Notes: generated by a model from the letters alone, not told the origin. Shown: positions 22,816 to 26,661, counted from the stretch's first letter. The stretch is DNA of 32,000 nt from an uncultured bacterium (GCA_964565945.1 CAZMGY010000026.1:1-32000); one strand, 5' to 3'. Numbers and translations are program-made.

Positions 22816-25800
22816 ATGGGACAGGTTTTTATTGGATTTGTAGCTATTCAGCTAGTGTTTGTTCAGGTTATTTGGGGTTTAGCCCCTGCTTCTAACTTGA
22901 TATCAAAGGATTTAGAGAAGTTTTGGGATGGAAAAGTTTCTTCGCACGGACAAACACAGGGTGTTGGGATGGGATCTCGTCAACCTCTGTCAGTGGTGGA
23001 TGCGTACGCTAAAGGTAGCGAAAATTACTGGTTGTCTAATTTTTACACACCTTCAGATGGATCTACATTGTTTCAGGTCAAAATGATTTGGGGTAAGGAA
23101 GAAATTTTATGTTTATGGAAGTCGGCGGAGCACTATTACAACGCAATGAAATTTTGGGGTATTAATCGCAAGGCTTTTGATGCTGTGAGAAAGGCTTCTA
23201 CTCCAAAAGAGGCGCTTAAGTTGGGACAGAAATACCGATTGAATCCAGAGCAGATTAAAGATTGGGATGCTGGACTTAAGTTTCAGCGTATGCGCGAAGC
23301 TTTGTGGTACAAGTTTTCAGTCTCAAAGTATAAAGCTAAGTTAATGAGTCTGAATGGAAATGTTATTGTTGAATCCTCGGACACTGATTCGACTTGGGGC
23401 TTCTGTCCGCAAGTGTATGCGTCTAACAATCGAGATTTAAATGATTCTTCTAACTACTTGGGGCGACTTCAAATGGAGTTGATTGATTTTTGGAGTAAGA
23501 ATCCTGAAGGATCTCTAAGGGAGTACTGTCGTTTCAAGTCGAACATGCGGGGCTATGCCGAGGAGGCTAAGGCCTTTTATGAGCAAAAGATTAAACCTCA
23601 TTTAAAGGCGTATTTTGAAAAGTATAGTAAGGAGGATATTCATCAAAAGAGCGGTTTGCTTGAGAGCTTTTTAGCCGAAAGAAGTGTTTTACCTTTTGTA
23701 TCCGAAGCTGAGCAGAGGGCTGTTGTGAAATCAGATCCTTTTGTGCAGCCTTCATTAGTGTGTAAGAAGTTGGTTCAAGCTTTTCAAAAGTTGTTTTCTG
23801 GTAATAAAACGGTTGATCAAAGTTTTCATGGGATAACCTCAAAAAAAATGAAAATAGGTCGTCGTAACAGCTTGAATGAGATTTATAATCCTCAAACGGG
23901 AGAGTTGATCAATGGTTTCAATATGGAACGGCATGATTTTATTTGGTCGTTTTATCCTAAGGTCTCTCGAGGAATCAGTGGTGCTTCTGAGCCTACTTAT
24001 TTGTCTTATGATATGAAGGTTGGGAGGGATCCTTACAATATTTTGACTTATCCTCTGGCAACACGTGAAGCACTTTTTGACGGTATCTTGCAATTGCGCA
24101 GGGATCAAAACTTTCGAGCAAAGCTGAAACAAAATGATGATGTTTACTTGCGCCACATTGGTCTAGCTTACGACGAAGGGAAAAAAAGTTTAAAAATTAT
24201 CAACGAGCTTGACTTCAAGGAGTATATTCGCGAACCTTACCAAACAAAAACTGTTAGGAAGAATGGCGTCCTAAAGGAGTATAAATTCCATAGGCATAAT
24301 CGTCTACGTCTGTCACGCCGTTACGAATCTTTGGTTCTTTTTGGTGAAGTTGAACGGGCCATGGCCATGAAGGATTTGTTGCAAAACGAAACAGTGACTG
24401 AGGTCCAAGAGGATTATTGGCAGAAAACGTTTGAAAATAGTTTGAAAGTTCACAAGGTCTTGGAGCAACGAAAAGAGACGCTAGGGTCTGCTTCTATGCA
24501 TGTGGGGGATGATTCCGCTTTGGAACAAATTCCTAAAGTCGATACAAAAGGAGGCCGGTGCTTTGTTTGGCACAAGGGATCCCTTTATATTCGTTTTTTT
24601 GATATTGATGATAAGAGTGATTTTTTGAAACAAAGTGTTAATTTTCAACCTACCCTATTTCAGGAGGTTGTGGGGAAGAATACCTTGGTTCGTATGAAAT
24701 CCTCTAAAGGGCCTAAGGCTCGAGATGAGGATCGTTTGGGAGCCTATGTGGCTCGTCGTGGCGATGTGGGTATTAATTTTTTTAGCAATGCTGAGCGCAA
24801 TGCTTTTTTAAAGTATGTGCTGTATGTTGACACTGATACTCTTAATAAGCATCATGATTTACGTAATCCATACGTTTTTAATAAAACAGGCATGGAGAAA
24901 GCACTTTACTTCCCCCAAAAGAGTGTAGATGAGCTTAAGACAATCCATCAGGGGTTTGTGGTGTTGCGTTCTGAAGATCCTGTGGTGTCGCGTTCTGAAG
25001 ATCCTGTGGTGTCGCGTTCTGAGTTTTTCCAACTAGATCCTAAGGAATTTGTTTTTTCACGCAACAAACCAGGAGGGGTTATGCCTGGGGCTATCTATCA
25101 CGATGTGAAAACAGGAGAGGAATGGATGGTCAAAATGGCAGGGAATCCTAGTGGTTTTTCTCCGACCTATCGTTATCGCGATGCGATGAAAGAAGTGATG
25201 TTGCTTCATGTGTTGCGCAAAATGGGGGTGGTTGTGCCCGAAGCTCGTATGGTGCGTGCCACTAACGGCAGCCTCTTGGTGGGGACCAAAATAGTGCCTC
25301 ATGTCAAATTGTATGAGTCGTTATCTGAAGAGGAGCGTCTTAAGATTGCTCAGGACGAACTGCATCGGATGTATATCTATGCGGTGTTGTTTGCGAACGA
25401 AGACTTTTTTAGTCCCAGCAATCAAAATGTGATTTTTCAAAGCAATGGGAGTGGGGGATTTAATCCTTTTCAACTGGATTTGGGTGAAAGTTTTAAGGGG
25501 GACTTTAGAGCAATCGAGAAGGATATTCGAGTTGCTCTTAGCAATAACCAATTCTTTCGGCGCGGAGGGGACGATGGATTTAAGGATTTGATCCTTAAGG
25601 ATTTAACGGACACTCGCTTACGAGGTCTGTTGGAAGAAGCTGCTAGCAAAGCCCAAGCTTTTGTGAAAAATTCAACAAAATTTTTGGCGGATTTTGAACT
25701 GATTCCTGGTGTTGTTAGCCCCGAGCCAGAGAAGTATTTTGATCTAGACGATCTTTTTCAGGATAAGACTAGGTCTGTTGAGGTTTCCTTAAAATATACA

Positions 25801-26661
25801 CATAACGGCGAAAGCGAATTGCGGTTTAACACAGTCGAAGAATGTCAGGAATTTTATAATAAGTATGTTCAAACAGCCAGCTTTGCATGTGGTGTTGCAC
25901 CCTATCCCTTTCCTTCTAATCATAATATTTTTGTGATGCCCAAGGATAACGATAAAATTTTGATGCTTAAAAAAACAGACAAGGCTGGCGATGCTGGATG
26001 CTACAAATCTGGTTACAAGACTGGATGGATAGGAATTAATTTTAAAACTAAGCAAGAACGTAGGGTTTTTGAACACTTGTTATCTATAGATCAATTGAAG
26101 AACAGGAATGTTGTGGAGCATTTGCATATCCTAAAAAATGAGACCACATTTTATGTTGAACCTCAAGTGCTGAAGGGTAAAGGCGGTTTAAAATGGAAAG
26201 CCAAGAGATTCAAATTTGCTAATCAGGTTGATATTCATGAGTATGATGCTCAGCTTTATCAGTTTTTGCTTGAGGAATTTATTGACGAGTTGAGGATAGG
26301 ACAAACCGTTTTAGAAAAAGAAGCCAAAAAATTGGAAAATCAGGCTGTTGTTGCAGAAGTGGTTGCACGAGGTAAACCCGAAGCTAAACCGAGGAGGGGG
26401 GATCCTGGGAAATATCAGGAAAGAAAGCAGTCCAAGGATTTACTTATCATTGAGGTTGTTTTGCCAAATAACACTGGAGTGCTGACTCTTCAGATTGGTC
26501 GCAATGCCACGTATGAAGATTTTGAAGATCTATTTGAAGATCTGTCTCTTGAGGGAGACTGGGATGAGCAGAACTTTCAAGACAAAATTCACTCTTTAAA
26601 TGGGCTTAGGCTTGATAACGATAAGGATTATGCCGAGACTCTACTGTACGAAGCGGCTTAA
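22816..26661 (+). CDS. Large multidomain protein: hydrophobic N-terminus + NADAR/YbiA (DUF1768) domain + duplicated unknown module + atypical kinase-like domain
   Basis: NADAR landmarks at aa ~70-230 align well to E. coli YbiA as I recall it: YWLSNFY, WKSAEHYYNAMKF, STPKEALKLG, DWD....MREALWYKF, DSTWGF, NYLGRLQMEL. Kinase-like landmarks at aa ~750-900: KPGGVMPGAIY, EEWMVK, KEVM, NEDFFSPSNQN, QLDLGESF. Start is ATG 22816 (GTG 22813 in the track). Confidence 0.85.
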   Translation: MGQVFIGFVAIQLVFVQVIWGLAPASNLISKDLEKFWDGKVSSHGQTQGVGMGSRQPLSVVDAYAKGSENYWLSNFYTPSDGSTLFQVKMIWGKEEILCLWKSAEHYYNAMKFWGINRKAFDAVRKASTPKEALKLGQKYRLNPEQIKDWDAGLKFQRMREALWYKFSVSKYKAKLMSLNGNVIVESSDTDSTWGFCPQVYASNNRDLNDSSNYLGRLQMELIDFWSKNPEGSLREYCRFKSNMRGYAEEAKAFYEQKIKPHLKAYFEKYSKEDIHQKSGLLESFLAERSVLPFVSEAEQRAVVKSDPFVQPSLVCKKLVQAFQKLFSGNKTVDQSFHGITSKKMKIGRRNSLNEIYNPQTGELINGFNMERHDFIWSFYPKVSRGISGASEPTYLSYDMKVGRDPYNILTYPLATREALFDGILQLRRDQNFRAKLKQNDDVYLRHIGLAYDEGKKSLKIINELDFKEYIREPYQTKTVRKNGVLKEYKFHRHNRLRLSRRYESLVLFGEVERAMAMKDLLQNETVTEVQEDYWQKTFENSLKVHKVLEQRKETLGSASMHVGDDSALEQIPKVDTKGGRCFVWHKGSLYIRFFDIDDKSDFLKQSVNFQPTLFQEVVGKNTLVRMKSSKGPKARDEDRLGAYVARRGDVGINFFSNAERNAFLKYVLYVDTDTLNKHHDLRNPYVFNKTGMEKALYFPQKSVDELKTIHQGFVVLRSEDPVVSRSEDPVVSRSEFFQLDPKEFVFSRNKPGGVMPGAIYHDVKTGEEWMVKMAGNPSGFSPTYRYRDAMKEVMLLHVLRKMGVVVPEARMVRATNGSLLVGTKIVPHVKLYESLSEEERLKIAQDELHRMYIYAVLFANEDFFSPSNQNVIFQSNGSGGFNPFQLDLGESFKGDFRAIEKDIRVALSNNQFFRRGGDDGFKDLILKDLTDTRLRGLLEEAASKAQAFVKNSTKFLADFELIPGVVSPEPEKYFDLDDLFQDKTRSVEVSLKYTHNGESELRFNTVEECQEFYNKYVQTASFACGVAPYPFPSNHNIFVMPKDNDKILMLKKTDKAGDAGCYKSGYKTGWIGINFKTKQERRVFEHLLSIDQLKNRNVVEHLHILKNETTFYVEPQVLKGKGGLKWKAKRFKFANQVDIHEYDAQLYQFLLEEFIDELRIGQTVLEKEAKKLENQAVVAEVVARGKPEAKPRRGDPGKYQERKQSKDLLIIEVVLPNNTGVLTLQIGRNATYEDFEDLFEDLSLEGDWDEQNFQDKIHSLNGLRLDNDKDYAETLLYEAA
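24967..25022 (+). repeat. Perfect 24-bp in-frame tandem repeat (2 full copies plus 8 nt) inside the large ORF
   Basis: cgttctgaagatcctgtggtgtcg at 24967-24990 is identical at 24991-25014, followed by cgttctga. It encodes (VVL)RSEDP-VVSRSEDP-VVSRSE. Confidence 0.95.

Follow-up and report, generated by a model that had tools for sequence, protein, structure and literature searches.

The NADARs known so far are small and cytosolic and serve as antitoxins or in phage counter-defence; that they erase ADP-ribose from guanine was shown only recently. They are mostly single free-standing domains (PMC11543638), and all NADAR/YbiA proteins tested so far hydrolysed guanosine-ADP-ribose in vitro (PMC11125620). 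The subfamilies differ in a residue of the last strand, which is Glu in the YbiA subfamily, Asp in the DarT1-linked NADARs and His in the phage NADARs (PMC11125620). The described YbiA-type proteins, such as E. coli YbiA (PDB 2b3w), the enzyme of Phytophthora nicotianae (8bau) and the Chondromyces YbiA antitoxin of YarT, are cytoplasmic, stand alone with about 150-190 amino acids (aa), and are in many cases paired with an ADP-ribosyltransferase toxin or, in plants, fused to rib genes. The gene described here lies at positions 22816-26661 on the plus strand of a 32,000-nucleotide stretch of DNA from an uncultivated Gram-negative bacterium (GCA_964565945.1 CAZMGY010000026.1:1-32000; the window). 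It is an intact open reading frame (ORF), stop codon included, whose product shares the fold family, the last-strand Glu and the E/K/D/W active-site residues with the YbiA-type NADARs. The protein differs from them in its length of 1281 aa, an export-type leader, a family-specific 90-aa C-terminal extension of the NADAR domain and the lack of an ADP-ribosyltransferase neighbour, and it also carries a kinase-like domain.

The kinase CtkA of Helicobacter pylori is secreted and enters host cells, and both CtkA and HopBF1 are kinases delivered by bacteria into host cells. By profile and predicted fold, the kinase-like domain is best matched by CtkA (JHP0940; 3akj/3akk/3akl) and the HipA-like kinases, with which it shares a minimal core and the Lys/Glu/Asp...Asn/Asp residues. 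Unlike CtkA, to which it is about 15% identical, it is embedded in a multidomain protein, and it has the catalytic loop NEDFFSPSNQN where HipA and CtkA have DxHxxN. The HopBF1 family (6pwd, 8hoe) is similar in its small core without a long activation segment and in a profile match from helix C to strand 5, but this match spans only about 55 residues, and the HopBF1 proteins are stand-alone type III substrates of about 200 aa with no Sec leader. Each of the two enzyme folds is already known, and the architecture is built from known folds.

A NADAR domain had been placed at aa ~70-230 by a first-pass annotation of the window, and the profile search bears this out: PF08719 matches aa 68-222 (model positions 8-158 of 163) with E=8.5e-17 and 62.3 bits, above the gathering cut-off of 35.1. 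E. coli YbiA matches the domain with E=3e-8, and a two-sequence profile finds YbiA with E=3.8e-14 and the Phytophthora NADAR with E=4.8e-7. Residues E105, K112, E186, D191 and W194 align with E43, K50, E125, D130 and W133 of the Phytophthora enzyme, the residues by which that enzyme holds ADP-ribose at its distal ribose and pyrophosphate (PMC11543638). The domain falls into the YbiA subfamily, since the segment VIVESSD with E186 lines up with lyEaS in 8bau and with VEHTE in YbiA. Judged by these conserved residues, the domain is apparently active. Its core is 52% identical to that of P0017, the syntenic counterpart in a related organism, which is comparable with the 55% of the neighbouring GmhA and therefore indicates purifying selection. 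Together with the extension behind it, the block is 49% identical to P0017. Searches of the NADAR region against phages returned only distant phage NADARs of 27-33% identity.

No model of Pfam, NCBIfam or PADLOC matches aa 231-1281, in which the first-pass annotation had read an atypical kinase-like domain. This call nevertheless holds, because the profile matches, the AlphaFold2 and Foldseek results and the catalytic motifs agree. Five relatives (P0003, P0004, P0006, P0008 and P0010) align to aa ~734-940, and their alignment displays a KPGGxMPG Gly-rich loop, an invariant-type Lys (WLIK), a Glu (REV), a catalytic loop xDFFxPxNxNV and a D-x-G after the next strand pair. The corresponding residues of the protein itself are the Gly-rich loop KPGGVMPG (751-758), K773 in strand 3, E793 in helix C, the catalytic-loop D863 with N868/N870, and the Mg-binding D888 (LDLGES). 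Among PDB entries, the family profile matched CtkA with E=1e-4, and HopBF1, a type III effector kinase, with E=2.5e-4; in sequence searches the resemblance to CtkA emerged only with this profile. An AlphaFold2 model from the shallow alignment (predicted local distance difference test score, pLDDT, 77.2; predicted template modelling score, pTM, 0.73) places K773 on strand 3 and E793 on helix C, with D863 following helix E and D888 following strand 8. Foldseek ranked CtkA on top for this model (E=8e-5), followed by DAPK1, PRPK/Bud32, PknB and others. Pfam HipA_C (PF07804) did not match the protein at E<=1; of its relatives only P0010 matched, weakly and under the cut-off (E=0.023). By the model and the motifs, the domain is a real, divergent and apparently active minimal protein kinase, nearest to the CtkA/HipA branch and outside Pfam HipA_C. 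A tblastn search of the domain against plasmids gave no match.

Both domains lie behind a hydrophobic, export-type N-terminus, as had been proposed. It comprises aa 1-26, the sole strongly hydrophobic stretch by hydropathy, next to one weaker 19-residue window at aa 1209. The hydrophobic leader and the motif LAPxS behind it are kept in eight otherwise divergent proteins from at least five lineages (Table 1), and the residue ahead of the motif is A, G or T in these eight. Ordinary signal peptides of the window, those of the TolC-like protein (...VQA/E) and of AmtB (...LYA/A), likewise have a small residue at -1. The simplest reading is a Sec signal peptide that would be cut right before a mature N-terminus L-[A/S]-P-x-S. 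A cut after the motif is disfavoured because R or E would stand at -1 in three of the proteins, and a cut between its A and P because Pro would stand at +1. A lipoprotein was rejected, as there is no Cys behind the leader. At the opposite end, a hydrophobic-x-x-x-Ala C-terminus is found in seven of eight family proteins as against one of 19 other window proteins, and the end of the NADAR-kinase protein, ...LLYEAA, fits it. None of the known NCBIfam signal models matched the shared termini. The LAPxS leader and the hydrophobic-x-x-x-Ala end may constitute a sorting or processing signal of an undescribed kind. A Dot/Icm-like C-terminal signal was also considered from the acidic tail and the small terminal residues, but it sits oddly with a Sec leader.

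The architecture, which the first-pass annotation had called unrecognised, proved equally unfamiliar to the databases. The whole protein forms a singleton cluster, and a phmmer search with aa 231-1281 against 1.84 billion representative proteins returned ten proteins at E<=1e-3, the query included. The model libraries give only the NADAR domain, and NADAR and the kinase module occur together in no family relative with readable sequence. GTDB genome scans with the protein and JGI metagenome scans with two alignments gave no match. Word-indexed homolog searches returned the query itself or nothing, and one of them missed even the query, so that their negatives weigh little. Searches of the literature turned up no earlier account of a NADAR fused to a kinase. 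What appears to be new is, above all, the pairing of the LAPxS leader with the Ala C-terminus, and also the combination of NADAR and kinase behind an export leader, the divergent kinase family and a family-specific module X; the libraries and papers searched describe none of these.

The relatives of the protein share parts of it in changing order. In the locus L085 of another organism, two leader-bearing genes lie directly upstream of PFK-GmhA, the same position as in the window. This organism is related to that of the window, as PFK is 81% identical and the tetranucleotide correlation is 0.84. One of the two genes encodes P0017 (937 aa), with the order leader, module X, strand-helix units, NADAR with extension, more units and a C-terminal domain; the other encodes P0005 (654 aa), with a leader, two copies of X and a C-terminal domain. 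The kinase module is missing from both. In P0003, encoded between atpC and hemH, the leader is followed by an unknown region, the kinase and the units. Its contig has a tetranucleotide correlation of 0.959 with the window (0.947 between the window's own halves) and comes from the same samples, which identifies P0003 as a paralog in the same genome. The noisy long-read contig L102 holds a gene broken by frameshifts, in which kinase and A' are arranged as in the NADAR-kinase protein (35-47% identity); the N-terminus of this gene lies off the contig. More distant is P0010 (L087:10001-14218, ENA ERZ19525894), a protein of 1405 aa from an unrelated bacterium of 62% GC, in which a long Ala/Gly-rich N-terminal part precedes a kinase-like module at aa ~890-1100 and a C-terminal PF03496 ADP-ribosyltransferase toxin domain. 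P0010 is an example of the polymorphic or multidomain toxins that carry ADP-ribosyltransferase domains. It and the NADAR-kinase protein have in common the rare kinase module (30% identity, E=1.5e-11), a large modular build and housekeeping surroundings. They differ in their N-termini and in that P0010 would write ADP-ribose as a transferase, whereas the NADAR domain would erase it. The P0010 gene stands among fatty-acid oxidation genes, with a 158-aa orphan ORF behind it. Taken together, the sequences point to a family that is tiny, very rare and domain-shuffling, with a shared N-terminal LAPxS motif, and membership in such a small, fast-evolving, lineage-specific family best explains the gene.

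Two domains with intact motifs, the conserved leader, the rarity, the shuffling of modules at a chromosomal position that is conserved, and kinase relatives found among delivered kinases and in a fusion to an ADP-ribosyltransferase favour an exported protein of the effector or toxin type. It would erase ADP-ribosyl-guanine, or a related N-riboside, and phosphorylate a target in another cell; the probability of this reading is put at about 0.5. The leader would direct Sec export and would probably be cut just before L22-A-P-A-S. The exported polypeptide would carry two enzymes, a YbiA-type NADAR N-glycosidase, of the class demonstrated to strip guanine bases of ADP-ribose, and a minimal CtkA/HipA-like Ser/Thr protein kinase. 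The family-specific modules X, A and A' and the tail presumably serve targeting or substrate binding. The protein would most likely act outside the producer's cytoplasm, on another cell such as a host, prey or competitor, where ADP-ribosyl marks would be erased and a target protein phosphorylated. If this is true, reversible nucleic-acid ADP-ribosylation, known from toxin-antitoxin and phage conflicts inside cells, would also have a part in conflicts of one cell with another, and the effector kinome of bacteria would gain a divergent minimal kinase family. A bolder version, which is doubtful, takes the shared termini as marks of a sorting or secretion signal, so far undescribed, of a set of large effectors specific to the lineage. 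The NADAR-kinase protein would then be the first secreted enzyme to erase ADP-ribosylation of nucleic acids, brought into a host, prey or competitor cell along with a kinase so as to disarm an ADP-ribosylation-based attack or immunity. The LAPxS leader and Ala C-terminus could in that case be used as a tag for listing the whole secreted repertoire of this uncultivated lineage.

Several observations weigh against an exported effector. The co-occurrence with ADP-ribosyltransferases, DarT or a secretion cluster that the first-pass annotation had suggested looking for is not seen in the window. Pfam scans of the window found no ADP-ribosyltransferase among the ORFs of at least 120 aa and no dedicated secretion-system cluster, there is no immunity gene in the window, and the neighbours are housekeeping genes. 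The only secretion-related gene in the window encodes a GspG-like pseudopilin (13164-14669), and the link to ADP-ribosyltransferases is only indirect, through the kinase module fused to PF03496 in P0010. The gene content of the window (PEPCK, PFK, GlnA, Amt, AcrB, heptose pathway) looks free-living. Unless it is delivered into another cell, a NADAR located outside the cytoplasm would find no obvious nucleic-acid substrate. In the kinase model, the 30 PDB kinases that Foldseek found at E<=1e-3 have modest TM-scores of 0.44-0.48. The leader is long (about 20 residues) and has no basic N-terminal region, and may therefore be a signal-anchor.

Such an uncleaved anchor would give a membrane-bound, cytoplasm-facing conflict or defence protein, in which the NADAR domain and the HipA-like kinase act in the producer itself, for instance against phages or as a fused toxin/antitoxin-like pair. 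There are precedents in that NADARs are antitoxins to DarT1 and YarT (PMC11543638, PMC11125620), and a NADAR hydrolase could reverse guanine ADP-ribosylation here as in DarT1-NADAR (DarTG1) and YarT-YbiA. HipA-type kinases are toxins of toxin-antitoxin systems, which goes with the weak HipA_C match of P0010, and the protein resembles the anti-phage NADAR model NF053876 (DS32_2) with E=1.5e-7. This similarity amounts to 30.7 bits, however, far under the cut-off of 240, PADLOC gave no match, and both syntenic loci have housekeeping neighbours; no ADP-ribosyltransferase or defence gene was found among the neighbours at L085, as in the window. The protein further differs from DarTG1 and YarT-YbiA in lacking an adjacent transferase, in being a large fusion with an export leader and in not belonging to the BC4488 subtype, which has a last-strand Asp; a DarTG or other defence system was rejected for want of a partner gene and a PADLOC match. 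The conserved small residue and LAPxS right behind the hydrophobic core resemble a processing site more than an anchor, which leaves a defence role in the producer decidedly unlikely. The other possibility close to home is that the protein is exported and stays at the envelope, as a periplasmic or surface enzyme that detoxifies or trims incoming or envelope-associated ribosylated molecules and phosphorylates envelope proteins, with no delivery. A Sec-type leader alone reaches only the periplasm, and the free-living look of the genome fragment and the nearby GspG-like gene, with no dedicated injection system visible in the window, agree with such a role. The periplasm is, however, poor in ATP and NAD-derived substrates, and a kinase there is therefore unlikely. 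CtkA, HopBF1 and the ADP-ribosyltransferase fusion of P0010 point instead to action in other cells, and the extreme rarity and domain shuffling are atypical of envelope housekeeping. Service to the producer's own envelope is therefore judged unlikely.

The remaining alternatives concern the substrate and the functional state of the protein. A YbiA-like metabolite-repair N-glycosidase for riboflavin-pathway intermediates, joined to the other modules by chance and with no link to ADP-ribosylation, would fit the YbiA subtype with its last-strand Glu, the JGI name of P0017 ("ribA/ribD-fused uncharacterized protein") and the best NCBIfam model, the riboflavin-intermediate N-glycosidase equivalog TIGR02464 (E=2e-18). 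Its score of 67.1 bits nevertheless stays just under the cut-off of 73.7, no rib gene lies near the NADAR-kinase gene in the window, and an export leader is incompatible with the cytosolic riboflavin pathway. YbiA-family members also hydrolyse guanine-ADP-ribose (PMC11125620), and a role restricted to riboflavin intermediates appears improbable. Finally, a singleton cluster with shuffled modules and an internal tandem repeat could be a decaying or non-functional orphan, a recombination mosaic among paralogs without a selected function as a whole. This is very improbable for an intact 3.8-kb ORF with a strong Shine-Dalgarno sequence and promoter-like sites, with catalytic residues retained in both enzyme domains and with a NADAR as conserved as GmhA. 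Moreover, the sequence is 99.98-100% identical in contigs of many independent samples, and contigs from at least ten sequencing runs match the window with 99.96-100% identity. The short-read contigs of the same strain break either in the 24-bp repeat, at 24993, or in a G10 tract, which explains why there is just one record of the exact protein in full length.

Between the NADAR and kinase domains, the first-pass annotation had left about 350 aa without a recognisable family. It remains true that no library model covers them, but the region resolves into the NADAR extension and the family-specific module X. The latter carries the motifs HDFIW..FP (HDFIWxxFP), HNxLR(I/L)xR and SLxLFG (SL..G), is only 32% identical between the NADAR-kinase protein and P0017, and has its L085 copies at 260-970, 3245-3850 and 4076-4670. 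The resemblance of these motifs suggests a possible kinship with the eukaryotic OGFr_N (PF04664), to be taken as a lead only. Pfam gave no OGFr_N match in module X even at E<=10. In hhalign, the module-X profile matched human OGFR (a sequence confirmed by Pfam, E=7e-106) with E=0.012 over 105 columns including HNxLRIxR, a borderline result, as one of 100 shuffles attains the score. The proposed duplication of modules A and A', which each hold two strand-helix units of the type hxhxF...ERxxF, looks real but weak: the Smith-Waterman score is 55 against 31.8 +/- 5.1 for shuffles (maximum 53; z ~4.5), and hhalign gives a pairwise E=0.0026. PDB profile searches with module X and module A' returned nothing significant. 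The 8-aa repeat that had been noticed corresponds to the in-frame RSEDPVVS copies in the linker ahead of the kinase-like domain. The acidic tail, too, was found as described, with 26% D+E and 6.6% K+R in the last 61 aa. A single-sequence AlphaFold model of aa 531-1281 was uninformative (pLDDT 33.5).

Table 1. Coordinates of the features in the window and N-termini of the leader-bearing proteins
Feature	Position	Strand	Description
xerD	21816..22712		upstream neighbour of the NADAR-kinase gene
xerD-to-gene spacer	22713..22815	+	103 bp, 78% A+T; promoter-like sites and Shine-Dalgarno sequence
Leader, aa 1-26 (N-terminus of the NADAR-kinase protein)	22816..22893	+	MGQVFIGFVAIQLVFVQVIWG, then LAPAS; hydrophobic core, small residue (signal-peptidase-like -1), then motif L-[A/S]-P-x-S
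NADAR domain, YbiA subfamily, aa 68-222	23017..23481	+	Pfam PF08719; catalytic/ligand residues
Post-NADAR extension, aa 223-311	23482..23748	+	conserved with P0017 (NMxGY...KPHLKxYF...SFLAERxVLPF)
Module X, aa 364-584	23905..24567	+	family-specific; once in P0017 and P0006, twice in P0005
Module A, aa ~585-713	24568..24954	+	two strand-helix units: LYIRFFDIDDKSDFL and VGINFFSNAERNAFL
In-frame tandem repeat	24957-25022	+	24 bp x 2.8 copies, 97% matches; encodes RSEDPVVS repeats
Minimal protein-kinase-like domain, aa ~737-969	25024..25722	+	motifs, profile, AlphaFold model
Module A', aa ~970-1121	25723..26178	+	homologous to P0002/L102 (36% identity), weakly to module A
Tail, aa 1122-1281	26179..26658	+	predicted long helix, strand-helix unit, acidic end 26476-26658
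Second orphan in the window, 1060 aa	1177..4359	+	same leader class, ...NIHYLMA, then LAPRS; body unrelated, internally repetitive
N-terminus of P0003			MLQRIILWQLGILLLLGDGLSWA, then LAPGS
N-terminus of P0005			MFHIIISLIFCFQLLLPPSVFT, then LAPSS
N-terminus of P0017			MFRVIIVLILCFQLVLPPSVST, then LAPES
N-terminus of P0006			MFRCIMLCLLSLCLMPLYG, then LAPAS
N-terminus of P0008			MWRHLSLILLLSLSLSKATA, then LSPRS
N-terminus of the L101 ORF	L101:9622-10044		MTRHLSYLYFILLMASQSLFA, then LAPTS

The gene is the longest ORF of the window and follows xerD behind a short AT-rich spacer, in agreement with the initial description. It would encode 1282 aa from a GTG at 22813 or 1281 aa from the ATG at 22816. 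A strong Shine-Dalgarno sequence, AAGGGAGG at 22799-22806, lies 9 nt ahead of the ATG and thereby fixes M1 as the start. An internal start at M53 was rejected, as the Shine-Dalgarno sequence sits before M1 and the leader is conserved in homologs. There are two promoter-like sites at the spacer, one at 22694-22721 (10/12) and one at 22751-22780 (TTGTTA-18-TACAAT with TG). Because the PFK gene downstream has a promoter match of its own (11/12), the NADAR-kinase gene is probably monocistronic. A horizontally acquired island was rejected, the GC content and GC skew of the gene being the same as those of its flanks.

All neighbours on either side are housekeeping genes. Upstream are found PEPCK, a TolC-like protein and AcrB; RNase H and RsmE; the GspG-like protein and two lipoproteins; and MscS, AmtB, GlnK, GlnA and XerD. 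Downstream follow PFK (pfkA), GmhA and the two HldE halves. No tRNA or Rfam RNA was found in the window. The GlnA of the window has its best matches, 63-69% identical, scattered over Planctomycetota, Desulfobacterota, Spirochaetota, Verrucomicrobiota and others.

Beyond what the first-pass annotation had covered, the protein turned out to belong to a domain-shuffling family with a shared leader motif, and a second leader-bearing orphan was found in the same window. This second orphan has about five internal repeats of ~120 aa (NLxQNL...YKxLL...YKKW...) and forms a pair of tandem paralogous orphans, without Pfam match, with the preceding ORF 15-1106. Short-read contigs break inside the larger ORF. 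The smaller one encodes 363 aa, has no leader and is similar to its larger neighbour in the middle and C-terminal regions of the latter. On the low-coverage long-read contig L101, which is full of frameshifts, a CD-NTase and Cap15-like pair of the type found in cyclic oligonucleotide-based antiphage signalling systems (CBASS) lies at L101:17726-19289, about 7 kb from a P0008-like family gene; this proximity is probably coincidental.

The GspG-like product has a pseudopilin-like N-terminus and a type II secretion system GspG domain at aa 52-139, followed by about 360 aa without a match; with 501 aa it is unusually long for a pseudopilin. The gene-like ORFs of at least 120 aa are all on the plus strand, with the sole exception of the MscS-like gene (16830-18134), and the GC skew is strongly positive across the whole window, from +0.10 to +0.34 per kb. 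The G10 homopolymer at 26694-26703 is intergenic, between the stop codon of the NADAR-kinase gene and the PFK promoter. Several independent short-read contigs stop there with 9-12 G, which could reflect either a sequencing difficulty or length variation. The HldE activities are encoded by separate genes (28427-29311 and 29308-30210); the adenylyltransferase half carries a fused ThiD2 domain (PF17792), and the gene that follows and overlaps it encodes the PfkB-type kinase.

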